DNA of 59,320 nt from an uncultured bacterium. GTDB lineage: Bacteria > Fidelibacterota > UBA2242. The stretch spans positions 1 to 59,320 of the forward strand of contig CAZAKB010000001.1 in NCBI GenBank assembly GCA_964485475.1, given 5' to 3'. The notes under the pieces were generated by a model. The model was not told the origin of the DNA, searched no databases, and saw only the letters and a program-made list of their open reading frames with translations. Within the stretch, counting starts at the first letter, position 1; each line of letters opens with the position of its first letter. Below, one piece after another: positions 31,345 to 53,457 of this stretch. The position numbers and the translations under genes are program-made.

Positions 31345-31402
31345 TGTATAATCTTTGATTATCTAGGATTTGTATTTTGAAGATTGTAAAACAGGAAAAA
31401 AG

Positions 31403-33892: not shown

Positions 33893-33906
33893 CACCATAT
33901 GGTAGG

Positions 33907-33950
33907 GGGGCAAGTAAGGGCCGGTTTTACCGAATACTGCCCCTTTTATT
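33907..33950 (+). terminator. Rho-independent terminator ending locus A
   Basis: GGGGCA(A)GTA pairs with TACTGCCCC (9 bp, one bulge). TTTTATTTT follows. It lies 15 nt after the stop at 33892. Confidence 0.7.
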
Positions 33951-34419: not shown

Positions 34420-34503
34420 AAAAATACAAGGATACCAGATTATAAAATATAGGTGAAATATTGATTGAAAAATGTTTCGAATAAAATAATCCTTGTATTT
34501 TTT
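34420..34503. repeat. 14-bp inverted repeat with a 55-nt spacer in the long intergenic region
   Basis: AAAAATACAAGGAT (34420-34433) is the exact reverse complement of ATCCTTGTATTTTT (34489-34502). A T-run follows the right arm. Confidence 0.5.
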
Positions 34504-34520
34504 AAAATATCTATTAAATT

Positions 34521-34534
34521 CGAAAACGATTTCG
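34521..34534. promoter_or_regulatory. Candidate LacI-family operator: a CG-centred imperfect palindrome
   Basis: CGAAAACGATTTCG is self-complementary at 12 of 14 positions with a central CG. It lies about 135 nt upstream of the LacI-family gene. Confidence 0.4.
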
Positions 34535-34620
34535 TTATTTTAAAATTAGCAAATGTGTTTTAGCGACGGGAAATGTGAAATTTATTCTTTGTGATCGGCA
34601 TCGGCAAAATGTCTATAGTT

Positions 34621-34660
34621 ACGAAAAATAACGAAATATAACGAAACTTATGCGAAAATG
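34621..34660 (+). repeat. Four helically phased (10-bp period) [AG]CGAAA repeats abutting the LacI start codon
   Basis: The units are ACGAAAAATA, ACGAAATATA, ACGAAACTTA and TGCGAAAATG. They share the CGAAA half-site with the palindrome at 34521-34534. Confidence 0.5.
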
Positions 34661-34669
34661 GAGATATTC

Positions 34670-35674: not shown

Positions 35675-35720
35675 TCTTGCTGATAAATGCTTTCAATAAC
35701 AATGTAACAGGAGGTAAAAA

Positions 35721-38708
35721 ATGAAAAAAATGTTAGCATGGCTAATCTTTGTGGTTATTGCATTGAGTGGAGGATTGTTTGCGCAGGTGATTTTCGATTT
35801 TGAAGTAGATAATGGTGGTTTTACTACTTCCTATGATCTTTTTTCATCGTTTGTGCAAGCCAGTGATCCCTCCGGATTGAGTGCGGGTGCTTTGGCCGCA
35901 ACTTTTGACATCAGTGTAACAGCTGATAATAAGGGTAATATTTACAAAGTAAATGTTGATCCAGATGCAGCACCAATCATAACCTTTTATGTGTGGTTGC
36001 CTGCGGGTATACCGGATTCCGTTTATTTTAAGTATTATTCCCAGGATTTTAGCTGGACTTATGCGGATTATAAATGGTATGCCAGCGCAATTCCAAAAGA
36101 GGTGTGGTATCCTCTCCAGTTTAATCTTGAGCAGGCACACCTGAAAAACAATGCTTTTGATGCTGCTGAAGGCGCTCTGCAGACTCTCGGTTTGTCAGTG
36201 TATACTGGTTATGAAAATGATGCTGACACAAGTTGGACAGGAACTATTTATGTCGACAACGTCACTCTACTTGGGGCATATCCGACGATTATTTCGGATT
36301 TTGAGTTTGATATTGATAGTTATGAATTGAAAAATGATTTGATCACAACCATTACCCACGCTACCGATCCGGCCGGAATAAGCAGTGGTTCGGTTGCGTT
36401 GACCATTAATGCAGATGCTACCACAAATAAAAAAGGTAATGCATATCAGTACTGCTACGTCAATGCAAAAGAAGCCAATGTAATGACCATGGATATTTGG
36501 TGCCCGACGGATTTGCCGGATTCTGTTTATATTAAATTTTATGTAAAAGACAGTACATGGACGACGGCATACACAACCTATCCTTGTTATGCTAAAGCAG
36601 TTCCAAGAGGAGTTTGGTATCCGTTACAGTTTGATCTGGAAGCAGCCTATTTACACAACAATAGCTTTAGTGTGATGGAAGGTGACTTAAGGACGATTGG
36701 AATTGAATTACAATCCTATGATTTAAGAGGCGATGACACACTGTATACAGGAACTGTCTATATTGATAATGTTAAACTGTTGAGCACTTATGTACCCCCG
36801 GAAGTCCCCAGCTATGTTGTGGCAGCTTTCGAAAAAGAGGCTGCCGGCACTCAGGGCTTTTCAAGATCAACAACGGCAGGATATGAAGCATGTACCGGGA
36901 TAGGAAGAGTCCTGGATCCAACAGAAACTTCAGATGGAATTTTAAGTTCCGGTTGGGATTTCAGTAAAGCTGTAAAAGGTTATTTCGGAAATTCCAGTTT
37001 CAATGTTTATTGGTCTGATACCGGGGCAGTTGTCGATACTGGTGCGACGGCAATATCCATTGATGTCTGGGTTCCGACGGATTTTCCTCAGACCGGAGCG
37101 ACTATCGGTATGGTCATTCGCGATAAGGTCAACTGGACCTGGAATGAGACCGGTTTTACAGTCAGTGATTCAACTATCATTCCTGGAGAATGGAATACGA
37201 TAACCCTGGATCTTTTACAATATATGACAGCCGGAACATATAATCCATTTGGGACCAGTGTATTTGGAATTCAGTTGCAGCACTCCAGTGATAACTCCTG
37301 GGTAGGCAATGTATATTTTGACAATGTAACTTTGATTGGAATAGAAGAACCTGAGGGAACATTGGCATCTCCAATTGCTATTGGTTCTGTCGAAACCTAT
37401 GATGAGGTTGGAGTACCGTTTGATTATGTTCATATTGTCTGGGTAGATAACACTATTGGGTCAGAGTCATACCAGGTTTTTATGAGTGAATCGGAAATCA
37501 CTGATATTGAGGCAACTGGTATAATTCGTATTGCTCGTGAAGTTCCGCATGGGACTGAAGAGTGGAATTATCGCCCATATAGCCGGTTATCAGAAGAAAA
37601 GACCTATTACTTTGCAGTTATTACATTGGGCGCAGATGGCACTATAACTGAATTAAACGAAAATTGCACGGTTGGTCCGATAACAATAAATACATCTGTT
37701 ACTGCAAAAGCACTTTATGATCCATGGTTTGCGGAATCTTTTGTGCTCGATGGTCTGGATACTGAATTTTTAGAAATGCATAAAGCCTATTCCATTATTC
37801 CTGAGGTTGCAGGTGGAATAGACACAAGTGGTTGGACACCGGCTTCTAGTGATATGAGCTTCAAAACGACCTTTGTTGTTGATGATGATTATCTCTACAT
37901 CTCTGCGGATGTTACGGATGATGATTTAAACGCTACAGGTAATGCAGCTATCGTTGGTGGACAGGCCTGGATGGGCGACGCTCTTGAATTCTATATGGGA
38001 GTATATGATATTAATCTTCTCAATCAATACCATGGCTACAGGGATGTGATGGCTGATGGAACCGGAGATTATCGGATCAGTTTCTGTGCCTGGGGCGAAG
38101 TTCAGAGTGCGACAGCTGTACATGATTTTCCCGGTATGCAAAGCACTCACTATCAAAAATTTGGTGGTGATGGATATATTATTGAAGCCCGCATCGCACT
38201 GGATTCTCTAGCGCTCGGTGGAGATATTGAGGTTGCTGATGGTGTGATGCTTCCGTTGCGGATCGATGGATGTGATCTGGATCCGAATTCCGCTGATGAA
38301 ACCCGCTCGCTGATTGTTCAATGGGGCAGCAATAGCAATACAGAAAACTGGTTGAGACCAAGCTGTTGGGCATATCTTGAAGTGTTTGTTGATTCTTCAA
38401 TTCTGGCGATTGACGATGCCAGTATGCTGAAACAGTTCAAACTCTATTCCAATTATCCCAATCCGTTCAACCCGGTTACCAGTATTAAGTTTGATCTCCC
38501 AAAAGCATCAAATGTCAATATGATCGTTTACGATGTTCTTGGAAAAGAGGTTAAAACTCTGGTTAATGAGAACAGAAATGCTGGAACTTATACGATTAAT
38601 TGGGATGGTCGCAATAACAATGGGACTATGGTTACAAGTGGATTGTATTTCTGCAAATTCATTACACCTGAATACCAGCGAACCCAGAAAATGATACTAT
38701 TGAAGTAG
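35721..38708 (+). CDS. T9SS-secreted multi-module glycan-binding protein with three tandem CBM-like modules, an FN3-like module, a CBM9-like domain and a type-A CTD
   Basis: A strong SD (AGGAGG) precedes the start. Each module begins [FS]DFE.. and ends in [IV]Y[VIF]DNV.L[LI][GS]. The CBM9-like block is DGLDTEF...[24 protein letters not shown]...[12 protein letters not shown]: [15 protein letters not shown]...GLYFCKF...KMILLK. Confidence 0.65.
35784..37356 (+). repeat. Three tandem protein modules of about 165-180 aa (diverged internal triplication)
   Basis: Modules lie at about 35784-36282, 36283-36786 and 36813-37356. Conserved landmarks are DFE, DP.G.S.G, LP(D)SVY.K.Y, VWYPLQF.LE.A.L.NN.F and G.[IV]Y.DNV.L. 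Confidence 0.65.
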
Positions 38709-38725
38709 TTCTCCTTTTTAATACT

Positions 38726-38763
38726 GGGGTGATCGTTGAAGAACAGCGGTCACCCCATTTTTC
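38726..38763 (+). terminator. Rho-independent terminator
   Basis: GGGGTGATCG (38726-38735) pairs with CGGTCACCCC (38747-38756), including one G-U pair. ATTTTT follows. It lies 18 nt after the stop. Confidence 0.75.
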
Positions 38764-38996
38764 CAACCAGTGTTTTTTGATTTATAGTAGTTCTTGTAAA
38801 GGATGAAGTACTATTCGGGCAACTGTACGTTTAGCAGTAATTTCAAATGATTAATTATTGTGGAATACGTATAGGTATTTTAATACAAATAAAATATTTG
38901 AACAATTATCTATAGAAATTTCAGTATGAATGACTTAAACTACAATTCAAATCTAGTCTATATAAAAATGGTATTTGGACAAAGCAAGGGGGAAAC

Positions 38997-41975
38997 ATGA
39001 AAAACCGGCTGCTGTTTTACCTGTTTTGCTGTTTGTTTCTGTTATCGGATCTACATGCCGGAGTCACCGGAAAAATTGCCGGTCGAATTATAGATGAACA
39101 TACTGGCGAACCCCTTGTAGGGGCCAATGTCATTATTATTGAAAAAACTGTGGATGGACAACTTGTGGCACTATCTCCTTCTTATCAACAAGGTGCTGCT
39201 TCAGATATAAATGGTGAATACTATATTCTGAATATTTCTCCTGGAATATATTCGGTCAAATTCGGATATATTGGATATCAATCGGTTATTGTTCCTGATG
39301 TTAGAATATCATCGGATATGACGACTCGAATAGACCGTGAAATGTCATCAACAATCATTGAAGCCGGTGAAGCGGTTATTGTTACCGGTGAACGGCGGGA
39401 AATCCAAAAGGACCTTACATCGTCTGAGGTCAGTATTGGAGCAGATCAGATTGGTGAAATGCCAGTACGCTCCGTCCGGGATTTGGTATCTTTGCAAGCT
39501 GGAGTTACACTTGATGCATCCGGGAATCTTCATATTCGTGGTGGTAGATCAACGGAAATTAGTTATATGGTCGATGGCGTTCAAATCCTTGATCCCCTGA
39601 ACCGGAGTTCGGGAATCAGTATCGATGATCAATCCATTGAAGAATTGAAAACAATTACTGGAACCTTTAATGCCGAATATGGTCAAGCCTTGTCCGGTGT
39701 CGTAAATATTGTTACGAAGCAGGGCAGTGATCAGTTTAAATTGAATTTGACAGGATATTTCGGGGATTATTACAGCACTGATTCCGATGTCTATTATGTC
39801 ATGAATAACTCGGAATGGGTAAATGCAGTGACCCATTTTGCCACCGGAGTGGATGAATCATTTAATTTCGATTTTCCGGGTTATAATCCGAATGATTCAG
39901 AAAACTATTTTAAGGATAAACCGTATCTGACGAAAAAATCTTATTTGAATACATACAATCCATTCCAGGCGAAGGATGTTCAGATGAATATTTCCGGTCC
40001 GGTACCATTGACTAATAAACGATTAACCTATTATGTTTCCGGGAGATATAACTATAATCCGGGATCCATATATGGAATACGTTATTTTATGCCCTGGGGA
40101 TTTCAATCACCGGTATCTAATACTATAAATTCCTTTCAAGAACCAGATAATGCATTGGTACCGATGCGTTCGTATGAAGGCTATTCGATGAATTCGAAAT
40201 TATTTTATAGATTATCAAATTCCGTCAATATCAGTTATGGAATTTATTATAATCATGATTCTGGAAATTATGGGTATAACAATCAATATAAATATATTCC
40301 GGATGCCCAGCGTCATTACCAGACCGATGCCTTTACTCATATTATTTCTTTAAAACAAACATTATCACCCAAAACATTTTATGATTTTAAAATCAGTTAT
40401 TACAATAAAGATCATTCCAATTATCTTTATAAAGATCCCGAAGATTATCGCTATATGCCGACTCAGTCCAGTGATTTTGAGATTTACGTTTTCGGATATG
40501 AAAACCAGGATAAAATCACAATGTGGTCTAATTCCTATGATTTTCTATATTGGGGAAATCCGGTAACCTATAGTAAAACAAATGTTCAGTATCAATCCTG
40601 TATGTTCGATTTGACAAGCCAAGTGACGAAACACCACCTGATGAAATTCGGATTTAAAGCGACTGCGCATAACCTGTTTTATAACCAATTCGATATTCAA
40701 TTCTCAACCAATGATTATCGCCCCTATGTACCATCGGACAATTCCCCGTATCATGTCAAATACAATGCAAAGCCGAAAGAATTTTCCGGATATGTTCAGG
40801 ATAAAATCGAGTTTGAGGAATTGGTTATTAATTTCGGTTTGCGGTTTGATTATTTTGATTCGGATGGTCGTGTTCTTGCTGATCTGCAAGATCCACAAAT
40901 TTATGATCCTTTTAAGATGAGTCACATCTATACAAATTACACATCTGATACACCGGATAGTGAATTGGTTGAATATGCTATTGCCGAACGGGAAGAATTT
41001 TGGTATCAAAACGTCAGCCCGAAATATCAGTTAAGCCCTCGATTCGGTCTGTCGTTTCCAATTACTGATCGGGGGGTGATTCATTTTTCTTACGGGCATT
41101 TTTTCCAAAACCCGGAATTCCGTTTTCTGTATGATAATCCAAATTTCTGGATTGAGGGTGCCGGAGCGGATAACCTGGTGGGAAACGCTGATCTGGATGC
41201 CGAACGTACCGTGATGTATGAATTGGGACTGCAGCAGCAATTATTCGATAATGTCTATATTCATGTGACAGGCTTTTACCGTGATATTCGGGATTGGATT
41301 GGTACCGGAAAACCTATTGACACTTATCAGGGGGTCACTTATTATAGATATGAAAATAAAGATCATGCATCCGCAAAGGGAATCACACTTTCGGGTAAAG
41401 CAAAATTCGGATATATTGCTTTAAATTTTGATTATACCTATATGACAGCACAAGGTACATCGTCCAATCCCCAAGATGAATACAATGATTCACAGTCAGA
41501 TAAAGCGCCACGTTTGACATTTATAAACCTGGATTGGGATCAGCGGCATTCATTAGGTACTGTATTAAATTATTCAAAAAATCAATGGTCATGGACATTA
41601 ACGGGTAGTGTAAATTCTGGTTTTCCTTACACTCCGGAATTTAGTCGAGGCGAGGTTTCAGGTTCTGGTACATTCGTTGGATTAACGGAAAATAGTGATC
41701 GGAAGCCGTGGACATACAACATGGATCTTCGCGTATCCCGAAAATTTAGTTTTGGAAAAGTTCGAATGACGATGTTTTTGAATATCAGGAATATTTTGGA
41801 CCAACGAAATGCCACAAGTGTGTATGCAGATACTGGATTACCGGATTACACATTACAGGGAATCACACAGAAAGACCGGGTCATTGAATTGTCCGATGTG
41901 GATGATTATTATGCAAATCCAAATTACTATAGTGCACCTCGTTTTATTCAATTCGGTCTGCGGATTGGATTATAA
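38997..41975 (+). CDS. TonB-dependent outer-membrane receptor with an N-terminal carboxypeptidase-regulatory-like domain, second copy
   Basis: Motifs are GKIAGRIIDEHTGEPLVGANVIII, HIRGGRSTEISYMVDGVQI and NAEYGQALSGVVNIVTK. It shares the barrel motifs SPRFGL.FPI...GVIH.SYGHFFQ.P with 6929-9664. Confidence 0.85.
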   Translation: MKNRLLFYLFCCLFLLSDLHAGVTGKIAGRIIDEHTGEPLVGANVIIIEKTVDGQLVALSPSYQQGAASDINGEYYILNISPGIYSVKFGYIGYQSVIVPDVRISSDMTTRIDREMSSTIIEAGEAVIVTGERREIQKDLTSSEVSIGADQIGEMPVRSVRDLVSLQAGVTLDASGNLHIRGGRSTEISYMVDGVQILDPLNRSSGISIDDQSIEELKTITGTFNAEYGQALSGVVNIVTKQGSDQFKLNLTGYFGDYYSTDSDVYYVMNNSEWVNAVTHFATGVDESFNFDFPGYNPNDSENYFKDKPYLTKKSYLNTYNPFQAKDVQMNISGPVPLTNKRLTYYVSGRYNYNPGSIYGIRYFMPWGFQSPVSNTINSFQEPDNALVPMRSYEGYSMNSKLFYRLSNSVNISYGIYYNHDSGNYGYNNQYKYIPDAQRHYQTDAFTHIISLKQTLSPKTFYDFKISYYNKDHSNYLYKDPEDYRYMPTQSSDFEIYVFGYENQDKITMWSNSYDFLYWGNPVTYSKTNVQYQSCMFDLTSQVTKHHLMKFGFKATAHNLFYNQFDIQFSTNDYRPYVPSDNSPYHVKYNAKPKEFSGYVQDKIEFEELVINFGLRFDYFDSDGRVLADLQDPQIYDPFKMSHIYTNYTSDTPDSELVEYAIAEREEFWYQNVSPKYQLSPRFGLSFPITDRGVIHFSYGHFFQNPEFRFLYDNPNFWIEGAGADNLVGNADLDAERTVMYELGLQQQLFDNVYIHVTGFYRDIRDWIGTGKPIDTYQGVTYYRYENKDHASAKGITLSGKAKFGYIALNFDYTYMTAQGTSSNPQDEYNDSQSDKAPRLTFINLDWDQRHSLGTVLNYSKNQWSWTLTGSVNSGFPYTPEFSRGEVSGSGTFVGLTENSDRKPWTYNMDLRVSRKFSFGKVRMTMFLNIRNILDQRNATSVYADTGLPDYTLQGITQKDRVIELSDVDDYYANPNYYSAPRFIQFGLRIGL

Positions 41976-41997
41976 CCTTTGATTTGGAGTAAAGTTG

Positions 41998-43056
41998 ATG
42001 AAACGAAAAAATGACCGGGAACAAAATAGTTTATTCAGATATGCTCTTCTGATTATTGTCTTTTGTTTTCAGATTCAGATTGTCACAGCCCAAACTGTTG
42101 CGAAAGTTGGTACTTCGGCGGCTAGTTTTCTAAAGATCGGAGTGGGTGGCCGTGCTCTGGGAATGGGCGAGGCTTATACAACCTGCGTCAATGATATTAC
42201 ATCAATTTTCTGGAATCCGGCCGGTCTGGCAAGCATTCAGAATACCCAGGTATTGTTAAATCATTATGATTATATCGCTGATGTAAATTACGAATATGGG
42301 GCAGTTGCTATGGCGATGCCTAATATTGGAACGATTGGCGCTCATATCAGTTTCCTTGGGATGCCCGATATTGAGCGAACAACGGTTTCGGAACCGGACG
42401 GGACCGGTGAAATGGTTGGTGCTTCATCAATGACGGCCGGAATCAGTTATGCACGGTTTCTGACTGATCGGTTTTCCATTGGGGCAACCGTAAAAATGAT
42501 CCAGGAACAGATTTGGCATTGTAGTGCAACTGGTTATGCAATGGATATCGGTGTCCTGTACCGTACATTTTTTAAAAATATTAAAATCGGAATGTCCATT
42601 TCGAATTTTGGAAGCAGCTTGCAGCTGGAGGGACGGGATTTACTGATTCAGCACGATATCGATGAACAAAGTGATGGAAACAACGCAAACATCAATGGGT
42701 ACCTGGCGACGGACAAATACACTATTCCAATATTATTCAGAGTTGGGATATCATCGAATTTGAGTAAAGATTTTCTCGGATTGAAAAATAATGATTTCAT
42801 CGTTTCTATCGATGCCGTCCATCCGAATGATAATTATGAATATGTAAATGCCGGACTTGAGTACCAGTTTAGACAATTACTTGCATTTCGGGTTGGTCGC
42901 AGGCAGATGTTTCTTAAAGATCGGGAGGGGGGCTTCAGTCTCGGATTCGGTTTACATCTGAATTTTAATAGTTATGACTTTTTTCTTGATTATGCCGCAG
43001 TCGATTTTGGCCGGTTGGATTATTTAAATAAATACTCACTGATTTTATCGTTTTAA
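41998..43056 (+). CDS. PorV/PorQ-family outer-membrane beta-barrel protein, second copy
   Basis: It has a signal peptide. The hallmark motif is GVGGRALGMGEAYTTCVNDITSIFWNPAGLA and the protein ends in F. The ORF track starts 3 nt earlier at a TTG. Confidence 0.7.
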   Translation: MKRKNDREQNSLFRYALLIIVFCFQIQIVTAQTVAKVGTSAASFLKIGVGGRALGMGEAYTTCVNDITSIFWNPAGLASIQNTQVLLNHYDYIADVNYEYGAVAMAMPNIGTIGAHISFLGMPDIERTTVSEPDGTGEMVGASSMTAGISYARFLTDRFSIGATVKMIQEQIWHCSATGYAMDIGVLYRTFFKNIKIGMSISNFGSSLQLEGRDLLIQHDIDEQSDGNNANINGYLATDKYTIPILFRVGISSNLSKDFLGLKNNDFIVSIDAVHPNDNYEYVNAGLEYQFRQLLAFRVGRRQMFLKDREGGFSLGFGLHLNFNSYDFFLDYAAVDFGRLDYLNKYSLILSF

Positions 43057-43067
43057 TCCCGGAGGTT

Positions 43068-46000
43068 ATGAGAATAATGAAAAATAGATATTGGTTTTTA
43101 ATTTTACTTATCGTTCAAACGTCATCGATGGCTCAACTGACTCATGGTGATGCCCAATATCGAGCAAGAAATGTTCATTCCGGGAATTTGATCAGGATTT
43201 CCTTTTACAATCATGGAATGGTGGGACGGCAACGAGGGGACCAAAGTATCGTGTATCCCGGTGAATGGCCGATTAACAGTGGTATGGTACAGATGGGAAA
43301 TGCAACCAGTTATGTTGGCACTGAGATGCAGGTCTTTGCCGGACTGGATTCAACCGGTGATTCAACATTTACCTATATTACACCATTTTCAATGTGCCAG
43401 GGATACAATCCTGAGCGATTTGCCCATGACTCTCTTGGAAATTTTCTGGGATTTGAACCATTACCCGGATATTTGAATATGACTCAAAAGGAGGCAGATC
43501 CATATAATGCTGTGGCTATGAGCCATGAGGCGTTTACCTGGCCGGCTTACTGGCCGGATAAGATGGAAGACGGGATCGATCCGGGCTGGGCTGGGCACTG
43601 GAATGGTTATTTTGGAAAAGACCAGCGCAATGCCGATGAAGAAAGCTATTATGTGATGGATGACTACCAGTTAAAGAAAAAGGTTTCGGGTCATAGTATT
43701 CCATTACCGATTCCTTCAGAGCCATTACGGGGCGGATTAGGATTACGCCAGGAAGTCCGGGGATTACAATGGTCAAATCCCGATGCGGAAGATTGTATTT
43801 TCTGGATTTACGATATAAAGAATATCGGGAAAAAGGATTACCCGATGACGGTTTTTGGTCTGAATGTTGGCGCAGGAATGGGAAGTAATCTGGCCAGCTC
43901 CGCTTCGGACAATAGTGACGATTGTGCGACGTTTTATCGTGAAACGAATTTGACAGTCAATTATGATTGGGACAATATCGGAGCCGGAGGTTATTCGCCG
44001 GTTCCCTGGGTTGGTTTTGCATTTCTAGAAAGTCCCGGTAATGCCTATGACGGTATTGATAACGATGGTGACGGTTTGGATAATATCGGTGGTGGCAAAA
44101 TAATATCTACCGATGATTTTTATGCGACTTACGATGTTGGTGATCCGATTGTTATCATTAATTACTATAATTATAATCGGGAAGTATCTACAATGCCGGC
44201 GAACGGGATTTCTTTTACAGTCAATGGAAAGAAATATACAAAGTTACCGAATACACTTCTAGGTGAAATTCCCCGGAATGGTGTTGATGATAATCTGAAC
44301 GGCATTATTGATGAATCGGACGGTGCCCAGTTAACCGAGACTGAAGAATACTACTATTTATACATTCGGGATGCCAATTATAACAACCGGGATTATGTGG
44401 CTGTTGATTATTTCAGCGGGGCCGGTCTTGACAATACCATGATTGATGAACGTCGCGATGATGGCATCGATAATGATGGTGACTGGGATCCAAATGTCGA
44501 CGATGTGGGCTTGGATGGCAAATCCGGAACCGGAGATGAGGGAGAAGGTGACGGAATTCCAACTCCGGGATATGGTGATTTACCGGGCGAGACCAACATA
44601 GATGTTACAGATGTGGACGAGTCGGATCAAATCGGTTTGACCAGTTTTGTGTTTTATGTGTATGGGACATTGACATATAGCAATGATGCCGATATGTGGG
44701 ATGTTTCGAAACCGGGCTATTTTGATGCAAGTCTTGTCAATGTCGATGCAGATTATGTGTTCTCATGTGGCTATTTTCCCCTTTTATCCGGCCAGAGTGA
44801 GTTTTTCTCGATTGCACTTATTTACGGTTGGGACAGGGATGATATTATTCGAAATAAACAGATTGTCCAGAAAATCTATGATTCAAATTATAATTTTGCG
44901 ATAGCGCCGGAGAAACCGAATGTTCGGGTTGTTGCAGGAGATAAAAAGGTCACCCTGTACTGGGATGAAAAATCAGAACTCAGTTTCGACCGTTATTTGA
45001 AAGAATATGATTTTGAAGGGTATAAAATTTACCGGGCAACCGACCCCGGTTTTTCCGATGCCGGTTCAATTACCGATGGATATGGATATAACCGGTTTAC
45101 CGTGCCGATAGAGACCTATGACAAAGTGGATAGCGTGTACGGATTTTTCCCGGAAACCTTCGGAACTGGTGTGCAATTCAACCTCGGAAGTGAAACAGGT
45201 TTGGTACATGCTTATGTTGATTCGCCGTTGGTGAATGGGAAACGTTATTATTATGCGGTTACTGCCTATGATAAAGGCGATATTGAAAAGAATATTTCTC
45301 CATCGGAAACAAATAAATATGTCACTATTGATGCCTCTGGAACCGTTACGACCGGTGAAAATGTGGTAACTGTTATTCCTCAGGCTCCGTCGCTCGGATA
45401 TAGTCCACCCGAGTTTGATACACAGCCGGAAGCGGTGGGTACAAGTATTTCTACCGGACAGGTGTATGTCAGTTTTATTGAACCCGATTCAATATATGAT
45501 AATCAGGAATACGAAATTCGATTTCTGGATCAAAGTATGGATAAACGTGATAACGATTGTGATTCATTAATTGATGGGCTGGATGATGATGAGTTACTAC
45601 CAACATTGACAACCGGATTTGTGATTGAAAACCTGACCCGTTCCGAAATTTTGGATACGGTCTGGATTTATGATTACCGTTATGAAAATGATAATTGGAT
45701 ATTGGTGAAAAATTTGTATAATGATGCCGATGGCAATCCAAATACTCTGACGACAATTGTCAATGGAATTCAATATTCCGTTTACAATCCATCTCCCGGT
45801 ATTATTAATATTCCGGGAAAGGCTATTTACAATGGGATTCAGTGGAGCGATTCGATTGACTATTCAACGGCATATAATGTACTGTTTTCAAGGTTCGAAC
45901 TGGGTGGATTTAACTCCGGTATCGATTATCCTCGTCAATACAAGATCATCTTTTATGATGACATTATCGGAAAATCTGAAACAGTTTACCCGATTTTGAA

Positions 46001-46685
46001 GACAACGGGAACACCGATACCAATACCTCCAACAGATGTGAATTTTGAGATTTTTGATCAGCAATCGGGTGAAGGGGTTCATTTTGGTTTTGTGGATGCT
46101 ACAGTTAATGCCACTATTGTTTCGAAGGGACATTTTTCCGCCAAAGACCGAATAATATTCTTTGAAAATTTACCAAATGGTTCTTCGGTCATTACAATGA
46201 ATGTATTGAACAATGATGTTGAAGATACCAGTTTTGTAAATTTATACGGAAGATCCCTAGGTACAGGAGATACGTTGAGCCTGTTCCCCGATTTTTCATT
46301 CAATAGTGGTTCGGCATATCGGTTTACCACAAATGGACAAAAAATTGATAATTCATTGGCAAAAAAAGGCTTGGACGACATTCGGGTTGTCCCAAATCCC
46401 TATGTGGTCACGGCGGGCTGGGAACCATCAAATCCCTATACAAGTGGCCGCGGTCCTCGGGAAATTCATTTTATCAATTTGCCAATGAAATGCACAATTC
46501 GGATTTATGCCATCGATGGAACATTAATCCGTAAACTGAATCATAATTCAACGATGACAAATGGGGCCGAAATTTGGGATGTACTGTCGAAAGATAGTAT
46601 GGAAATTTCTTATGGTGTTTATATTTATCATGTCGATGCTCCCGGAATCGGGGAAAAAGTAGGACGATTATTAATCATTAAATAA
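43068..46685 (+). CDS. Large secreted partner protein (1205 aa), paralogue of 9710-12811, with Ca-binding loops, an FN3-like module and a variant CTD
   Basis: It has a signal peptide. Ca-binding loops are GIDNDGDGLDN, NGVDDNLNGIIDESDG and DDGIDNDGDWDPNVDDVGLDG. The C terminus reads VVPNPYVV...REIHFINLPMKCTIRIYAIDG...YGVYIYHVDAPGIGEKVGRLLIIK. The start may be at 43077. Confidence 0.75.
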   Translation: MRIMKNRYWFLILLIVQTSSMAQLTHGDAQYRARNVHSGNLIRISFYNHGMVGRQRGDQSIVYPGEWPINSGMVQMGNATSYVGTEMQVFAGLDSTGDSTFTYITPFSMCQGYNPERFAHDSLGNFLGFEPLPGYLNMTQKEADPYNAVAMSHEAFTWPAYWPDKMEDGIDPGWAGHWNGYFGKDQRNADEESYYVMDDYQLKKKVSGHSIPLPIPSEPLRGGLGLRQEVRGLQWSNPDAEDCIFWIYDIKNIGKKDYPMTVFGLNVGAGMGSNLASSASDNSDDCATFYRETNLTVNYDWDNIGAGGYSPVPWVGFAFLESPGNAYDGIDNDGDGLDNIGGGKIISTDDFYATYDVGDPIVIINYYNYNREVSTMPANGISFTVNGKKYTKLPNTLLGEIPRNGVDDNLNGIIDESDGAQLTETEEYYYLYIRDANYNNRDYVAVDYFSGAGLDNTMIDERRDDGIDNDGDWDPNVDDVGLDGKSGTGDEGEGDGIPTPGYGDLPGETNIDVTDVDESDQIGLTSFVFYVYGTLTYSNDADMWDVSKPGYFDASLVNVDADYVFSCGYFPLLSGQSEFFSIALIYGWDRDDIIRNKQIVQKIYDSNYNFAIAPEKPNVRVVAGDKKVTLYWDEKSELSFDRYLKEYDFEGYKIYRATDPGFSDAGSITDGYGYNRFTVPIETYDKVDSVYGFFPETFGTGVQFNLGSETGLVHAYVDSPLVNGKRYYYAVTAYDKGDIEKNISPSETNKYVTIDASGTVTTGENVVTVIPQAPSLGYSPPEFDTQPEAVGTSISTGQVYVSFIEPDSIYDNQEYEIRFLDQSMDKRDNDCDSLIDGLDDDELLPTLTTGFVIENLTRSEILDTVWIYDYRYENDNWILVKNLYNDADGNPNTLTTIVNGIQYSVYNPSPGIINIPGKAIYNGIQWSDSIDYSTAYNVLFSRFELGGFNSGIDYPRQYKIIFYDDIIGKSETVYPILKTTGTPIPIPPTDVNFEIFDQQSGEGVHFGFVDATVNATIVSKGHFSAKDRIIFFENLPNGSSVITMNVLNNDVEDTSFVNLYGRSLGTGDTLSLFPDFSFNSGSAYRFTTNGQKIDNSLAKKGLDDIRVVPNPYVVTAGWEPSNPYTSGRGPREIHFINLPMKCTIRIYAIDGTLIRKLNHNSTMTNGAEIWDVLSKDSMEISYGVYIYHVDAPGIGEKVGRLLIIK
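44433..44628 (+). repeat. Acidic DxDxDG Ca-binding loop cluster in the second partner protein
   Basis: DERRDDGIDNDGDWDPNVDDVGLDGKSGTGDEGEGDGIPTPGYGDLPGETNIDVTDVDESDQIG. Confidence 0.6.
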
Positions 46686-46686
46686 A

Positions 46687-48099
46687 ATGTATCTGTACAA
46701 ATTCAAAATAGTAGTACTGTTAATTATCCCTTTTATATTCGGTTGTAGCGATCGAAATGATCCGGTTGTGGCACAATTCGGCAATCAGAAAATCTCGTTC
46801 GAAGAATTTCAAACAGTTTACCTTGATTTACTGAAAAAACCACATTCGATGGATTCAGAACAGCTGCGGGAATCCTGCCTTGATGAGATTATCACTTGGA
46901 AATTGTTGGCTTCGGAAGCAATTAAATCCGGTTTGGACGATGACAAAAAATATCGGTATAAGTGTGATGCTCATAACGATAAAGTGCTCCGCGAACTCCA
47001 TTTTCAGCATCAAATCGGGCCTCAAATCCAGATTGATGAATATGAATTAAAAGAGGTTTATGCTTTTATTACGCAGCAGCGGTATGTAAAGCATCTTTTC
47101 TTTAAATCACTTGAGGATGCGGATATCCATTACCGCCGGTTAACTAACGGTGAAGAATGGAATACAGTGGCCCGGGAAGTATTTCCTGATACTGATTTAG
47201 CAATGTCTGGCGGTGATCTTGGTTGGATTAACTGGGACCAGATGGAATATGATTTGGCGATGGCAACATTCAGACAGGAAATTGGAGTAATTTCGAAACC
47301 GGTTGCGTCTTCCTTTGGATATCACATCATTAAAGTTGTTGATTATAAGAAGAATCCTTTGATCAGCGAAGATAATTATCAATCCGCCCGGCGGAAAGTC
47401 AGATATATGCTTGAAATGAAAATCGGAGATAAAATTGCAGCAGAATATATAACTTCGATGATGAATGATAAACACATTGAAGTTCGGGCCGATATGATAA
47501 ATTTAGTAGCCGCAAGATTTCAGGAAGTGTTTAATCGTAAACCAAAACCCTATGAATTAACACAAGAGACTCAACTGACGTCCATGGAAATCCGCGAACT
47601 TGAAAATATATACTGGGCAAATCGCGATAATGTTCTGGCCATTATCGATGGGGATGAGTTGACAGTTGGCGAATTTATTTACAATCTGAATTATATTCCT
47701 TATTCTGCAATAGCAAGAGGATTTAAAACTGCATTAGATTTTGTCATCCGTGACCGGGTTTTAACAAAAGAAGCACGCAAAATGCGACTGGATCGTTTGT
47801 ATCCGGAGTATACCGATAAAACTGTCCTATTTCAGGATAAACTATTGCAGGCGGAATATCGGAAAATATTGAATCAGAAAATTACAGTATGTGACGAAGA
47901 AATTCATAGCCGATATCAGCAGGACCTGAACCGTCTATATAAAAATATTTCCTTCAATAATGCAAAAGATGATATTAAAAATATGATTTTAGCGGAGAAG
48001 CGAAGTAACGTTGTTAGTGAGCATATTTCTGCATTAAAAAACGGGATGCAGATTAAAAAAGATATGCAGATAATCCGTGATTATTACGATAACATTTAA
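46687..48099 (+). CDS. Parvulin-type peptidyl-prolyl isomerase lipoprotein (SurA/PpiD-like), second copy
   Basis: Lipobox FIFGC. The PpiC domain is GGDLGWINWDQMEYDLAMATFRQEIGVISKPVASSFGYHIIKVVD. It starts 1 nt after the partner-protein stop. Confidence 0.75.
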   Translation: MYLYKFKIVVLLIIPFIFGCSDRNDPVVAQFGNQKISFEEFQTVYLDLLKKPHSMDSEQLRESCLDEIITWKLLASEAIKSGLDDDKKYRYKCDAHNDKVLRELHFQHQIGPQIQIDEYELKEVYAFITQQRYVKHLFFKSLEDADIHYRRLTNGEEWNTVAREVFPDTDLAMSGGDLGWINWDQMEYDLAMATFRQEIGVISKPVASSFGYHIIKVVDYKKNPLISEDNYQSARRKVRYMLEMKIGDKIAAEYITSMMNDKHIEVRADMINLVAARFQEVFNRKPKPYELTQETQLTSMEIRELENIYWANRDNVLAIIDGDELTVGEFIYNLNYIPYSAIARGFKTALDFVIRDRVLTKEARKMRLDRLYPEYTDKTVLFQDKLLQAEYRKILNQKITVCDEEIHSRYQQDLNRLYKNISFNNAKDDIKNMILAEKRSNVVSEHISALKNGMQIKKDMQIIRDYYDNI

Positions 48100-48129: not shown

Positions 48130-49365
48130 ATGACCAAGGAATACAGTTCAAAAATAGAAATCCTGGAGCAATTCGAAAAGAAAGTTCGTGATAATCTGTT
48201 TCAAAATATTCTGCCATTTTGGTTGAATTATTCCATTGATAAAGAAAATGGAGGTTTTTTCGGACGGATAAGCAATGATTTGCAATGTGATAAAAATGCA
48301 CCGAAAAGTTTAATCCTGATTAGTCGCATATTGTGGACATTCTCTGCTCTATATCAATTCGAACCCAATGACCAATATCTGGAAATTGCAAACCGGGCAT
48401 ACAACTATCTGAAAGATCATTTGATTGATGACCAATATGGCGGAGCATACTGGCTGGTTGACACGAACGGACTCGTTATTGACAATATGAAGAAAATGTA
48501 CGGCCAGGCATTTTTGATTTATTCACTCAGTGAATATTATTCAGTCGTCGGTGAAACAAGTATTCTCGAACGGGCTATTGATACATTTCATTTAATTGAA
48601 AATCATAACTATGATAAGGAATTTGGTGGATATTTTGAAGTCTCGAACCGGGATTGGTCGATTGCTGAAGATATGCGCTTAAGTGCTGTCGATATGAATG
48701 AGAAGAAATCAATGAATACTCACCTGCATCTGGTTGAAGCGTATACTAATTTGTATCGTAATTGGAAGAACGATCATGTCGGGGATCAGTTACGGAAATT
48801 GATCGATAATTTTATTGATTATATTATTGATCCTGAAACCTATCATTTTAAACTTTTCATGGATGAAAAATGGCAACCGAAATCCGAGGGTGTATCATAT
48901 GGCCATGATATAGAAGGTAGCTGGTTGCTATGCGAAGCGGTCCAGGTCCTTAATGATGATAATTATTATCAAAAAGTCAATAATATTTCAGTGAAAATGA
49001 CGGATACAGTCATCCGGGAAGCGCTAAGTAATGAAGGAGCGGTATTTCTTGAAAAGGATGGCGCTGGGAAAATCCTCAAAGATATCATCTACTGGTGGCC
49101 TCAGTCAGAAGCGGTAGTTGGATTTTTAAATACGTTTCAGTTACGTGGTGATCTAAAATATCTTAATCTGGCAAATCGTGCTTGGCAATATATTGAGAAA
49201 TACCTGGTAGACAGACAAAATGGTGAATGGTTTTATGAAGTTTCTTCTACCGGGCAGCCAAATCCAAACAGACTGAAAGTATCGGAATGGAAAGGGCCTT
49301 ATCATAATACCAGAGCATGTTTAGAAATATTGAAACGAATTGAGGCAATTCGACAGAAAGCTTAA
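48130..49365 (+). CDS. Cellobiose/mannobiose 2-epimerase (N-acylglucosamine 2-epimerase superfamily)
   Basis: Blocks typical of cellobiose 2-epimerases are present: PFW...[56 protein letters not shown] and [10 protein letters not shown]. Confidence 0.75.
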
Positions 49366-49369
49366 TCTA

Positions 49370-50560
49370 ATGAACAAACAAGAATTTAGAAAAAATATCC
49401 TGCGAATGATTACAGAGCAGGAGAAGTTTATTGCCAGAAAAAATAAACCAATTCCATCACAAAATGGAATATTCCAACGCTATCAAAATCCGGTTTTAAC
49501 AGCCAAACATGCTCCGGTGGAGTGGCGTTTTAATTTGGATTTTAGTCATAATCCGAATCTCCTTGAACGTCTTGGAATTAATGCCGTTTTCAATTGTGGC
49601 GCCATTAAATGGCAGGGAAAATATTGTATCGTTGCGCGGATGGAAGGAGTGGATCGCAAATCCTTTTTTGCCATTGCAGAAAGTCCAAACGGCGTTGATC
49701 AATTCCGATTTTGGGATTATCCGGTTGTGATACCGGAAACAGATCGGCCGGAAGTGAATGTCTATGATGTGCGACTAACTCAACATGAAGATGGTTGGAT
49801 TTATGGTGTTTTTTGTACCGAGCGGAAAGATCCAAACGCAAGTGAATCTGATACTTCCGCAGCTGAAGCTAAAGCCGGGATTGCCCGGACGAAAGATATG
49901 GTAAATTGGGAACGCTTGCCTGATCTCGAAACAAAATCAAGGCAGCAAAGGAATGTTGTTCTGCATCCGGAATTCGTTGAGGGCAAATATGCTTTTTATA
50001 CACGACCTCAGGACGATTTTATCGAAGCCGGAAGCGGTGGCGGAATTTCCTGGGGGCTGAGTGATGCAATTGATCCTGCTGTGATTAAGGAAGAATTTGT
50101 TATTGATTCGCGGGAATATCACACAATTTATGAAGCGAAAAATGGACAAGGACCAGCACCACTCAAGACGGAAAAAGGCTGGCTTCATTTGGCACATGGT
50201 GTGCGAAATACGGCCGCCGGATTGCGTTATGTTCTGTATATGTTTATGACTGATCTTGAAAAGCCGTGGGTAAATACACATAAACCGGCTGGTTATTTCA
50301 TCGCGCCGGAAGGTGATGAACGGATCGGAGACGTTTCGAATGTCGTATTCAGTAACGGCTGGATTCTTGATGAGGACGGAAAAGTCTTTATTTACTATGC
50401 TTCCTCAGATACGAGAATTCACGTCATTACATCAACGATCGATATTTTGTTGGATTATGTTGTCAATACACCTGAAGATCCACTTCGGTCATCATTATGT
50501 GTAAAGCAACGAATTGAATTGATTGATCAAAATATCAAGATATTAAAGAACCTGAAATGA
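49370..50560 (+). CDS. GH130 4-O-beta-D-mannosyl-D-glucose / beta-1,4-mannooligosaccharide phosphorylase
   Basis: Blocks are [87 protein letters not shown] and [10 protein letters not shown]...G.RYVLY. ATG at 49370 lies 4 nt after the epimerase stop. Confidence 0.85.
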
Positions 50561-53457
50561 ACTATATTAAATTTCTAATTGTATCGATTGCGCTAACATT
50601 TTGTATTTTTGCCCAAGTGAATGGATTTATTGAGGATTTTAATGATAATGATCCCCTTGGCTGGGAAGTGCCTGAAACTCATCTGGTGACTTATGAGATC
50701 AGTGAAACAGATAGCGTTTTTGTGATTTTGTATCATCGGACAGTGAACAGTGGCGTTTGGGATGTCATCAATTATAATCCTCAGATAGTCGCTGATCTCT
50801 CCAGTAATCCATACATCTCAGTAAAAGTGAAATCCGACATCGCCGTGGAATTGGTGCTTAAACCTCGTTATGAAAATGCCAATACGGACTGGTTGGAGGC
50901 TCAACTTCCGGGTGACAATACCTGGCACACGTACTTTTTTCAGATAGAATCCGATCCGCCGCTTTTGTTGACCCGAATGTATGTATATCTGGATGGCGGC
51001 TCAACGGTTATAAAGTCCGGTACAGTTTGCCTGGATAATTTGAGTTTTGGAAGTTTTGTTGATACCACTTATGTTGATGTTTCGGATATGGAAACTGCGC
51101 TGACAAATGCCTATCTTCTATACAATAATTCAAACGAAGGAACAGATGAGAGTGAGTATGTAATCGGTTCCAAAACAGAATTATATTCTTCAATTTCTGA
51201 CGCTCAAGCAAAACTGACGTCAGGTGGACTGACTCAGGCAGATATTGAAGAAGCCACCTGGGATTTATATGATGCTTGTGTGACATTTGAATCGAAAGTA
51301 ATTACCGAGAGTGTTGGGATAATTGATAGTGACGCTACTCGGGAGACTCGCTATCTTTATACAAATTTGAAAAAAATTGCATCAGATTATATGATATTTG
51401 GGATGCACGATGTTACCGGTTACGGTGTGGGTTGGAGTGGTGATGATGATCGCAGCGACGTCAAAGATGTATGCGGTTCCTATCCGGCGATGTATGGTGA
51501 AGATATGAATAAAATTGCTCGCAACGTGGATGTGGAACGTGTCCGCTATCGGGTGATTTCAGCTTATAACCGTGGAGGAATCACCACATTTTCATGGCAT
51601 CAATATGATCCCGAGGATCGTGGTTTTTATGATGACGATGTGAACAATGAAAATATTGTTGCATCGATATTACCCGGTGGGAAATACCATACGAATTACA
51701 AAGAAAAACTTTATCGAATAGCATCATTTTTAAAATCTTTACGCGGTCCAAACGGTGAAAGTATTCCGATCATTTTTAGACCCTATCATGAGCATACTGG
51801 GGGATGGTTTTGGTGGGGAGCCGGTGATTGTACGGAAAGTCAGTATATCGCGATCTGGCAATTTACAGTAACATATTTACAGGATTCGCTGAATGTCCAT
51901 AACCTGTTATATGCCCTTTCACCAGCCGGTCAATACATAGTAAGCAAAGAGGATTATTACACGATTTTTCCGGGTGCAGACTATATCGATATTTTTGGAG
52001 TTGATGATTATTTCACTGAAAATATTCCTGAGTCGGAAAAACAAACATACCTGAATATGCTGAAAAGCTGTGTCGAAGCAGCCAATGATAACGATAAAAT
52101 CGTTGCATTGACTGAAATGGGACAGGAGAGTTTGACAACAGCGGATTTTTATACAAATGTTCTTTTAGATATTGTTAAAAATGATAATGTTGCGATTAAT
52201 ATCAGCTACGCTATGACCTGGCGTAATGCAAATGAAATTCATCATTTTGCTCCTTATCCAGAACATCCGTCGGTCCCGGATTTTTTAAAATTTTATGATG
52301 ATCCTTTTACGCTTTTCGAAGACAATCTTCCCGATATGTATCATTTAAGTTCGATAGATACACTTGCACCGACATATATATCTTTTCCTGAAAATTCCTT
52401 TATTGCTGTTGATACGGCTGTGACGATAACGATTACAACCAATGAAAAAGCGTTTTTACGTTACAGTTTAATCGATCAGTCTTTTAATGACATGCCGAAT
52501 GATTTCGAAAAAGGCCAGGGAACACTATATCATTCCACAACCCTTTTCGGTCGTCAGGGAGACACATTCCAGTTATACGTAAGATCAATGGATTATGCCG
52601 GGAATATGAGTTCAGAGTCCATGATGATTGATTTTACAATCGACACATTGCAAATGCCGGTTCATTGGTTTGATGAACGCTATTCAGTTCATGATTGGAC
52701 ATATGCACCGGCGCCTTTTGTATTTCAGGGTGAGGGAAATGGTACTACCGAAATAAGACAGGTTCGGACATCCTATTTTAAAAAGAATTTCACAATCGAG
52801 GATGCTTCCGTGCAGCAACAATTGATCATTTTTGTGCGTTTTGATAATGGATTTATTGTCTATCTGAATGGCCATGAAGTGGATCGCTATAGTGTCCCTG
52901 CTGGAGATTTGGAATATACTGACTGGGGAGCTGTTGCGAGTGCATCTCTAATAACGCGGACTCTCAATGCCGAGGATTGCCAGTACCTGGTTGATGGGGA
53001 GAACTGGATTTCAGTGGAAATTCACCAGGCAAAGACCGATTCCCTTGACCATCTTTTTGATCTGAAAATGATTGCGCCAACGATCCTTATCGATTATGGT
53101 GAAAATTGGTATTATTACGATAACGGACAACAACCAGCTGACCGGACAATAGGCGATATTGATTTTATTTCTGAAGATCGATTTCTATTGCCGGATCAGG
53201 CGACTCTATATCCGAATTATCCGAATCCATTCAATCCATCAACTACAATTCGTTATTCCATCCCTGCTGAAGATTTCATGACAATTTCTGTTTTCGATCT
53301 GAAAGGCTTTCGGGTGGACAATATTATTTCCGAACGACAATCAGCTGGCGTGTATTCGATACAATATAACGCAAATAAATTATCATCCGGGATATATTTT
53401 CTGGTGTTAAAGACCGGCCAATATGTTGATACCCAGAAGATTACAATATTGAAATAA
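50557..53457 (+). CDS. T9SS-secreted GH26 endo-beta-mannanase with an N-terminal CBM-like module, a C-terminal jelly-roll module and a type-A CTD
   Basis: The GH26 core runs FGMHDV...SWHQYDP...[14 protein letters not shown], which holds the acid/base Glu. IVALTEMG holds the nucleophile Glu. CTD: [15 protein letters not shown]...GIYFLVL...KITILK. The start overlaps the GH130 stop (ATGA). Confidence 0.85.

Follow-up and report, generated by a model that had tools for sequence, protein, structure and literature searches.

We analysed a 59-kb stretch of DNA from an uncultured bacterium of the Fidelibacterota (59,320 nucleotides of contig CAZAKB010000001.1, hereafter the window) that contains four tightly packed, consecutive genes. 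These encode a TonB-dependent receptor, a barrel of the PorV/PorQ family, a large partner protein whose C-terminal domain (CTD) resembles the type A signal for type IX secretion systems (T9SS), and a PrsA/SurA-like lipoprotein, which is a parvulin-type peptidyl-prolyl isomerase (PPIase). The window has a G+C content of ~40%, and its genes run co-directionally. We divide it into locus A (1-33892) and locus B, the mannan cassette region that holds the four genes (38997-48099; Table 1). A reading made from the letters alone (the sequence-only reading) had placed the four genes on the plus strand with gaps of 22, 11, and 1 nt, and open reading frame (ORF) calls confirmed the genes, their coordinates, and this spacing; the next gene downstream follows after 30 nt. 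Its domain assignments for the receptor, the PorV/PorQ-like barrel, and the parvulin lipoprotein were likewise borne out by Pfam and NCBIfam hidden Markov model (HMM) searches. It had also noted that the same four families recur in locus A, where we found paralogues at 6929-13915 and 20673-22244, all with E-values of 2e-17 or better. The gene order in locus A is receptor-large protein-barrel, and that in locus B is receptor-barrel-large protein-PPIase.

In a consensus scan, a strong hairpin resembling an intrinsic terminator closes the gene upstream of the locus B cassette and is followed by a promoter-like site, and together these would mark where the transcription unit of the cassette begins. 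The scan found no comparable terminator-like site between 38997 and 49500. Given the short gaps, the terminator upstream, and none inside, the cassette is predicted to form a single transcription unit that runs into the downstream glycoside hydrolase (GH) genes. Searching the window with Rfam and for tRNAs turned up no RNA elements.

Table 1. Features of the window, beginning with the locus B cassette and its locus A paralogues
Feature	Position	Strand	Remarks
TonB-dependent receptor, locus B	38997-41975	+	992 aa
PorV/PorQ-family barrel, locus B	41995/41998-43056	+	353 aa; TTG at 41995, ATG at 41998 immediately after
Large partner protein, locus B	43068-46685	+	1205 aa
N-terminal beta-supersandwich domain of large protein	43134-44903	+	Residues 23-612; separate model of N-terminal 595 residues: pLDDT 78, pTM 0.81
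Acidic inserted subdomain of large protein	Within supersandwich domain	+	Residues ~321-525; invariant DxDxDG-type loops
FN3-like domain of large protein	44904-45377	+	Residues 613-770; hallmark FEGYK[IV]Y[RK]; Foldseek matches to FN3/Ig arrays
Variable middle beta-sandwich region of large protein	45378-46352	+	Residues 771-1095; least conserved segment
Variant T9SS type A-like CTD of large protein	46353-46682	+	Residues 1096-1205; motif VVPNPY...WEPxNPYxSGRGPR...NLPxxCTIRIY...YGVYIYHVDAPGIG...IIK
PrsA/SurA-like parvulin PPIase lipoprotein, locus B	46687-48099	+	470 aa
Receptor paralogue, locus A	6929-9664	+	911 aa; 34% identity to locus B copy, E 3e-169
Large-protein paralogue, locus A	9710-12811	+	1033 aa; 33% identity, E 3e-92; same variant CTD
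Barrel paralogue, locus A	12842-13915	+	357 aa; 41% identity to locus B copy, E 7e-85
Divergent PrsA/SurA-like lipoprotein, locus A	20673-22244	+	523 aa; Rotamase_3 28 bits (marginal); 20% identity, E 2e-17
Intrinsic-terminator-like hairpin closing the upstream CBM9/CTD gene	38725-38757	+	14-bp stem, 8 G-C pairs, T tract (consensus scan only)
Promoter-like site after hairpin	38760-38788	+	Consensus scan only
LacI-family regulator	34658-35674	+	Upstream of locus B cassette
CBM9 protein with canonical type A CTD	35721-38708	+	Upstream of locus B cassette
N-acylglucosamine 2-epimerase family protein	48130-49365	+	Downstream of locus B cassette
GH130	49340-50560	+	Downstream of locus B cassette
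GH26 with type A CTD	50557-53457	+	Downstream of locus B cassette
Large calcineurin-like metallophosphoesterase with canonical T9SS CTD	53478-56507		Locus B
CBM35 + metallo-beta-lactamase fold + alpha/beta-hydrolase/esterase protein	56524-59319		Cut by window end

The receptor and the barrel

The locus B receptor starts with a Sec signal peptide, which is followed by an N-terminal extension of the CarboxypepD_reg type and then by the plug and barrel domains, and it matches PF00593 (84 bits), PF13620 (44 bits), and PF07715 (39 bits). PF13620/PF13715, PF07715, and PF00593 are present in the receptors of both loci. Against the SusC/RagA model TIGR04056 (cut-off 368), the locus A receptor scored 88 bits over its N-terminal part only, and the locus B receptor gave no match at E<=0.01; SusC was also absent from the PDB sequence matches of the latter. 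Neither receptor is adjacent to a susD/ragB-family gene, the next gene downstream being that for the large protein or the barrel. Among the main ORFs of at least 100 aa that were scanned, together with the ORF cut by the window end, no SusD-family match was obtained, so that the earlier claim of a window devoid of SusD-like lipoproteins is upheld.

Both barrels are members of the PorV/PorQ family, scoring 180.6 bits (locus B) and 206.5 bits (locus A) against NF033709 (cut-off 90), with matches spanning the full length of the model (positions 1-326). Scores of the locus B and locus A barrels fell below the cut-offs of the individual equivalogs: 60.5 and 66.3 bits for PorV (NF033710, cut-off 250), 97.7 and 81.6 bits for PorQ (NF033711, cut-off 220), and 90.5 bits each for PorV2 (NF052325, cut-off 325). 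The sole PDB relative of the locus B barrel was PorV of F. johnsoniae (6h3i_F, E 4e-8). PorP_SprF was matched by neither barrel in Pfam or NCBIfam, where the matches were to PorV, UPF0164, and Toluene_X. The Toluene_X/FadL matches were weak, and the locus A barrel also matched BamG at 26 bits (cut-off 250).

A housekeeping PorV could be ruled out as the identity of this gene. The sequence-only reading had named a simple housekeeping PorV as an outcome that would undo its proposal; the occurrence of two paralogues within 59 kb, both under the PorV, PorQ, and PorV2 equivalog cut-offs, indicates that the barrel is something else. We propose that the locus B barrel is the cognate shuttle and anchor of the large protein.

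The large protein

Pfam and NCBIfam assigned the 1205-aa protein to no family, scans of the whole protein and of its segments at E<=10 yielded nothing useful, and a PDB profile search returned no match. The protein begins with a Sec signal peptide (residues 1-22) with an SMA|Q-type cleavage site and has no lipobox Cys. A model of the mature protein, built with AF2 from a 56-sequence alignment, is nearly all beta (mean pLDDT 80.6, pTM 0.66). This architecture indicates that the protein is not SusD-like, and it disposes of the concern, raised with the original proposal, that the partner protein might have a SusD fold. A SusD in disguise was rejected on the same model and on the lack of any Pfam or NCBIfam match.

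The family alignment contains invariant acidic columns, and many aromatic residues are invariant as well. The protein had been described as a Ca-binding protein with a variant CTD; the variant CTD stands, and Ca binding comes down to DxDxDG-type motifs only, which are matched by no model. Between the window paralogues, the FN3-like domain is 46% identical and the middle region 26% identical with 80 gapped residues; the latter is our candidate for the part that gives substrate specificity.

Foldseek searches with the whole model gave only low-TM Ig/FN3 arrays, with PorZ at rank 2 (very low TM) and PorU at rank 29. With the N-terminal model, the matches were weak (TM ~0.3, best E 4.5e-5); they fell on supersandwich domains without catalytic function in a dextran dextrinase, GH149, GH94, GH116, and PL26, and also on the YidC P1 domain and aldose epimerases.

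A variant C-terminal domain private to the family

The CTD is the best-conserved segment between the window paralogues (56%) and forms seven strands in the AF2 model (residues 1084-1181 of the mature protein). When 19 variant CTDs were compared with 7 canonical ones by hhalign, the two groups aligned through the terminal Lys with 90% probability (E 1.5e-6). By eye, several elements recur in both the variant CTD and the window's six canonical ones, namely PNP[FY], an I.[FY]..LP strand, a ..I.[IV][YF]...G..V strand, a G[VI]Y[FI]Y strand, and a terminal L/I-K; the variant has an additional ~15-20 residues after the first motif. The variant CTD did not match PF18962, and type B CTD models were absent among its NCBIfam matches at E<=10, the top ones of which were weak and fell on the C-terminal ends of PorU (E 6e-4) and PorZ (E 1e-3). 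Across all loci retrieved, strong scores of a variant-CTD HMM (>100 bits) were confined to the large-protein family, with the locus A copy at 161 bits. The same neighbourhoods held 128 ORFs with canonical CTDs, indicating that T9SS cargo is abundant around these loci. As judged from these alignments and scores, the variant CTD appears to be a derivative of the T9SS type A signal that is private to the large-protein family.

Two homologues of the locus B large protein, P0110 and P0112, share 45-46% identity with it over their full length and carry a canonical type A CTD instead of the variant. In comparison with P0112, conservation is the reverse of that between the window paralogues, with 41% identity in the middle region and 21% in the CTD. 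P0112 (L081, 8001-11567) lies in a mannan locus with several GH26 genes, a GH5, and a GH2 mannosidase, and neither a PorV-like gene nor a receptor gene was found within 8 kb of it. A homologue that has a canonical CTD and no barrel argues that the variant CTD and the private barrel go together. P0110 and P0112 are near-identical in the compared C-terminal stretch, so that they probably sample one evolutionary event.

Conservation of the receptor, large protein, and barrel as a unit

Homologues of the large protein are numerous, with more than 3400 among the candidates scored, and those that are named are all labelled hypothetical. Their records place them in Marinimicrobia, Ignavibacteria/Melioribacteraceae, Calditrichota, KSB1, Fermentibacteria, Rhodothermales, and others. 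Among the named ones, Marinimicrobia proteins come closest (71% identity for the locus B protein and 83% for that of locus A), and the window probably stems from this lineage. Cultured carriers include Melioribacter roseus, Ignavibacterium (I. album), and Caldithrix abyssi, for which growth on glucomannan has been reported (PMC5317091). A single-sequence query of 1.84 billion cluster representatives (50% identity clusters) returned 490 clusters with E<=1e-30, a number that rises to 1938 with E<=1e-10.

Gene linkage was examined in a scan of one genome per GTDB species, which yielded at least 594 confirmed relatives. We compared six-frame ORFs of the best 78 loci with eight window proteins, and counted linkage in the 55 of these that had at least 4.2 kb upstream and at least 1.3 kb downstream of the large protein. 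The receptor gene lies immediately upstream of the large-protein gene in 55/55 loci, and the barrel gene adjoins the large-protein gene in 55/55, one of them with a frameshifted large protein. With T for receptor, B for large protein, V for barrel, and P for PPIase, the gene orders were TBV (34 loci), TVBP (10), PTBV (6), TBVP (4), and VTBV (1); the barrel and the large protein can thus stand in either order after the receptor. Beyond these loci, five of six further variant-CTD loci share the pattern of receptor and barrel. Co-occurrence of the trio is thus essentially obligate and far above chance, which was the outcome that the sequence-only reading had called for in a survey of gene neighbourhoods.

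The PPIase is less constant. The locus B protein matches Rotamase (48.5 bits, cut-off 21.7) and SurA_N_3 (32.9 bits, cut-off 27.2), has the lipobox IFG|C at its N-terminus, and has PrsA and SurA as its top PDB matches; the SurA and PrsA equivalog cut-offs were not reached. A PPIase was found within 10 kb in 32/55 loci. In 10 loci, each of them ordered receptor-barrel-large protein-PPIase, it follows the large protein directly downstream; in 6 it is directly upstream of the receptor; and in 4 it is found downstream of the barrel, at most ~5 kb away from the large protein. We therefore ruled out the PPIase as an obligate fourth member and take the trio as the conserved unit, with the PPIase as a frequent accessory. 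Of the quartet originally put forward as a module, the receptor, the barrel, and the large protein hold, and the PPIase as a constant member does not.

The locus A PPIase has syntenic counterparts in related loci, where they lie 5-7 kb downstream of the barrel, with relatives at L083 19595-20989, L087 10498-12012, and L084 14370-15932 (phmmer, 88-142 bits). No Pfam match was recorded for these relatives, so that a survey relying on Pfam would count too few PPIase-like members of the cassette. The catalytic competence of the locus A type is doubtful. As for its client, the PPIase could equally serve the 22-strand receptor.

Co-divergence within the trio

We compared the divergence of the trio members in a mirror-tree analysis of 64 trios. 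All parts of the trio co-diverge (r 0.57-0.87). The partial correlation of the CTD with the barrel, given the receptor, was 0.43, and that of the CTD with the receptor, given the barrel, was 0.09; the bootstrap 95% interval of the difference was 0.17 to 0.51. The FN3 and middle regions, by comparison, track the receptor over the barrel (intervals below zero), and the N-terminal domain shows a weaker trend in the same direction. This pattern is suggestive of a CTD that contacts the barrel and a body that works with the receptor. Because the loci are related and such tests are liberal, we count co-divergence as suggestive only.

A proposed route to the surface and its alternatives

Our preferred reading, which we consider to stand at about an even chance, is that the large protein is T9SS cargo which a barrel of its own keeps on the cell surface, and that it captures substrate there on behalf of the receptor. 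After export by Sec, the large protein would fold in the periplasm, possibly aided by the PrsA/SurA-like lipoprotein, and would cross the outer membrane through the T9SS by means of its private variant type A CTD. The co-encoded PorV/PorQ-family barrel would then take over the CTD and probably keep it, resulting in surface anchoring. Retention is modelled here on the PorZ CTD with PorQ and on type B CTDs with PorP/SprF barrels. The type A-like CTDs of PorU and PorZ are reported to be uncleaved and to remain on PorV and PorQ (PMC10202324, PMC10947112). Cognate type B CTD and PorP/SprF pairs are described as adjacent genes with specific and stoichiometric use, and the barrel is proposed to extract the cargo and retain it at the surface (PMC12618676, PMC9143113).

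Once at the surface, the conserved N-terminal and FN3 part would work with the co-encoded receptor, and the variable middle region would recognise the locus-specific substrate and pass it on for TonB-powered import. The substrate would be manno-oligosaccharides for locus B and of a glycerophosphodiester type for locus A. Processing in the periplasm and cytoplasm would fall to GH130 and the epimerase in locus B, and to an ABC importer, a kinase, and GDPD enzymes in locus A. Anchoring via the PorV-like barrel had been part of the sequence-only reading. It gains from the CTD homology, the PorU and PorZ matches, the canonical-CTD homologue that lacks a barrel, and the co-divergence of CTD and barrel, while surface exposure and retention are the parts of it that we infer.

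Several observations weigh against this reading. The TIGR04183 scores of the variant CTDs of the two window paralogues, 13.4 and 13.7 bits, lie below the cut-off of 23. The dependence of the variant CTD on the T9SS, its retention, the exposure of the protein at the surface, the contact between the proteins, and the binding of substrate are likewise steps that we infer. At L088 (5806-12099), a receptor and a variant-CTD large protein occur with no barrel gene within 10 kb; by analogy with orphan type B CTDs, the barrel may be encoded elsewhere. At L021 (3147-7966), a second receptor gene comes directly after that for a variant-CTD large protein, and the 1.4 kb from the large protein to the contig end hold no barrel gene, an arrangement that may be a tandem cassette. 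The canonical-CTD homologue P0112 has no receptor neighbour, so that the body can, as far as gene content tells, act alone, be it as a binding protein in its own right or as an enzyme. The fold match of the modelled N-terminal domain is weak, and no binding site was identified in it. Because locus A is not a glycan locus (see below), the likeness of the supersandwich domain to carbohydrate-binding domains cannot explain the entire family. Finally, the mirror-tree signal comes from related, non-independent loci with liberal Mantel-type p-values, and remains suggestive.

The large protein might instead be a free-standing T9SS surface binding protein or adhesin, neither complexed with the receptor nor serving as its lid, with the barrel as only its private shuttle or anchor and the adjacency of the receptor due to co-regulation; we judge this unlikely, though a serious contender. 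It is kept alive by P0112, which has the same body with a canonical CTD in a mannan locus and no neighbouring receptor, indicating that the body can function alone, and the evidence that links CTD and barrel fits it equally well. SusE and SusF, which are surface glycan-binding proteins encoded beside susCD in Bacteroidota and are not the lid, also count in its favour. However, the receptor is immediately upstream in all 55 loci, a stricter arrangement than that of accessory binding proteins around susCD. In addition, the N-terminal and FN3 parts are conserved across loci for unrelated substrates and the divergence of the FN3 and middle regions tracks the receptor, which together suggest a conserved partner other than the substrate. 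A quite improbable alternative is that the large protein is a new surface enzyme (a glycoside hydrolase, lyase, or phosphodiesterase) that pre-digests polymer for the receptor. The N-terminal Foldseek matches to carbohydrate-active enzymes (CAZymes), namely dextran dextrinase, GH149, GH94, GH116, PL26, and GH174, the many invariant acidic and aromatic residues, and the persistence of the mannan-clade body in mannan loci are what one would expect of it. Yet the matched parts are non-catalytic supersandwich domains at a TM of only ~0.3, the model is without an (alpha/alpha)6 or TIM-barrel catalytic domain, and there is no Pfam, NCBIfam, or PDB sequence match. Moreover, the invariant residues are common to the mannan and glycerophosphodiester paralogues, and a single chemistry for both is unlikely.

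It is also conceivable, with very low probability, that the barrel is a FadL-type channel or a BamG-like factor for receptor assembly, so that barrel and PPIase serve receptor biogenesis and the large protein is unrelated cargo. The weak Toluene_X/FadL matches and the BamG match of the locus A barrel point this way, and SurA-type chaperones serve TonB-dependent receptors in E. coli. In the Bacteroidota BAM complex, the machinery that assembles beta-barrels, BamG is a barrel of the FadL/PorV-like kind and BamM adopts a PPIase fold (PMC12611786). Nevertheless, the BamG score is a small fraction of its cut-off and the PorV/PorQ family model matches far more strongly. Barrel and variant CTD occur one-to-one and are gone together in the canonical-CTD homologue, and CTD divergence tracks the barrel. 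Several copies are found per genome, each within a catabolic locus.

Relation to known systems

Like SusC/SusD and RagA/RagB, the cassette has a long TonB-dependent transporter with a carboxypeptidase-regulatory-like N-terminal extension. Like these pairs, it also has an adjoining gene for a large surface partner, sits in a substrate-specific catabolic locus with its own regulator, and occurs as several paralogues per genome. In contrast to SusC and RagA, its receptors miss the TIGR04056 cut-off, and in contrast to SusD, an alpha-helical lipoprotein of ~550 aa, the partner in the trio is all-beta, has 1000-1300 aa, and combines a Sec signal peptide with a T9SS-type CTD. Because the SusC cut-off is missed and the partner is not SusD, the cassette is not a member of the SusCD class. 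The trio further differs in its obligatory third gene, that for the PorV-like barrel. TonB-dependent transporters that are capped or fed by a beta-rich, non-SusD surface protein are known from BtuG on BtuB and XusB on XusA. BtuG and XusB are small lipoproteins that use a lipoprotein surface-export route with no dedicated barrel, whereas the partner in the trio is large, is not a lipoprotein, and has a dedicated barrel.

The type B CTD and PorP/SprF pairs (SprB-SprF, Fjoh_3952-Fjoh_3951, PG1035-PorP) resemble the trio in that a non-standard signal is paired one-to-one with a dedicated adjacent barrel. They differ from it in that the CTD of the trio is a type A derivative and its barrel is of the PorV/PorQ family, and in that the cargo of the trio is coupled to a TonB-dependent receptor in nutrient loci and not to gliding adhesins. 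PorZ-PorQ and PorU-PorV resemble the trio in combining a type A-like CTD with a PorV-family barrel; retention is shown for them and would apply to the trio by likeness. They are single-copy core machinery, whereas the pair in the trio is multi-copy and locus-specific, and the body of the large protein is unrelated to either PorZ (beta-propellers) or PorU (a peptidase). Anchoring of a surface protein by a FadL/PorV-like barrel is also described for BamG-BamH (PMC12611786).

A full-text literature search found no published description of the cassette, which is not proof of absence, and the available portions of the Melioribacter and Caldithrix genome papers do not mention it. The earlier statement that no characterised system has this composition thus holds for the composition; it does not extend to the principles, since there are precedents both for a surface partner on a TonB-dependent transporter and for a cognate barrel encoded beside a T9SS CTD. 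We conclude that this is a genuine finding, widespread and strongly non-random, that it is undescribed to the extent that we could determine, and that its parts come from known families.

The trio probably does the job of SusD in Bacteroidetes-related bacteria that are mostly without SusD. In a wider form, which we put forward tentatively and lean slightly against, a stable three-protein outer-membrane machine would replace SusCD across the non-Bacteroidia phyla of the FCB group, namely Marinimicrobia, Ignavibacteria, Calditrichota, KSB1, Fermentibacteria, Cloacimonadota, and Gemmatimonadota. In this machine, the T9SS would deliver the substrate-capturing lid, and a private PorV/PorQ-type barrel, not a lipid anchor, would tether it without a covalent bond. 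The pair of CTD and barrel would constitute a third class of T9SS signal and shuttle, beside type A/PorV and type B/PorP-SprF.

SusC/SusD pairs are the marker used to predict polysaccharide utilisation loci (PULs). CAZymes and T9SS cargo abound in the genomes of Ignavibacteria, Marinimicrobia, Calditrichota, KSB1, and related groups, but susCD pairs are few, so that their loci are largely invisible to PUL predictors. A metagenomic study likewise describes susCD as scarce in the CAZyme gene clusters of Ignavibacteriales (PMC10576277). The trio, which is present in hundreds of species, is a candidate for the missing substrate-capture component, and the combination of a variant-CTD HMM, a PorV/PorQ-family barrel, and a receptor could mark such loci. 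It would also add a new case in which the CTD specifies a barrel of its own, a point relevant to how the cargo of the T9SS reaches its final place, and the glycerophosphodiester locus would extend the use of the module to non-glycan nutrients.

Locus contexts and minor observations

The GH130, GH26, and epimerase genes next to the cassette indicate that locus B is a mannan-utilisation locus. Related loci (L001, L002) contain GH26, GH5, an SSF transporter, and an epimerase, and in L001 the LacI and CBM9/CTD genes likewise precede the cassette. An orthologous locus, with a large protein 62% identical to that of locus B, is laid out in the same way. The protein with CBM35 and Lactamase_B domains at the end of the window has a counterpart at L081 11968-13419, an unrelated mannan locus, and may be an uncharacterised mannan-associated esterase. 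Large metallophosphoesterases with a canonical CTD are encoded in both loci of the window (31370-33892 and 53478-56507); a phosphoesterase is unexpected in a mannan locus.

Locus A contains two GDPD phosphodiesterases, an FGGY kinase, metallophosphoesterases with T9SS CTDs, an LTD/LamG protein with a CTD, and a Ugp-like ABC importer made up of a solute-binding protein, two permeases, and two ATPases. Its orthologues, including L083, L085, and L087, add GlpD-like DAO/DAO_C, GDPD, and PhoD. From its gene content, locus A looks like a locus for glycerophosphodiester or phosphodiester utilisation and not a glycan PUL, with teichoic acid, phospholipid head groups, and nucleic acid as candidate substrates. 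Another member of the family adjoins a CBM20 CTD protein, and the L088 locus encodes a DeoR regulator, a DHDPS-family lyase, an SSF transporter, a BNR protein, and five FG-GAP/ASPIC CTD proteins; the module is probably also present in loci for sialic acid and starch-like substrates. Its occurrence in mannan, glycerophosphodiester, and these other contexts agrees with the description of a portable, substrate-independent module given in the sequence-only reading.

The 766-nt intergenic region between locus A and the locus B LacI gene (33893-34657), which falls in the window's most AT-rich part (G+C 0.34 for 34001-36000), is devoid of ORFs of at least 100 aa, tRNAs, and Rfam matches. In the middle of locus A, a URO-D family protein (16618-17712; a weak match of 33.8 bits) is odd for a phosphodiester locus. 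An ORF at 22248-23078, with a weak match to Zn-dependent phospholipase C, overlaps the solute-binding protein ORF (22996-24546) by 83 nt. The GTG start of the latter was assigned mechanically, and its true start is probably farther downstream.

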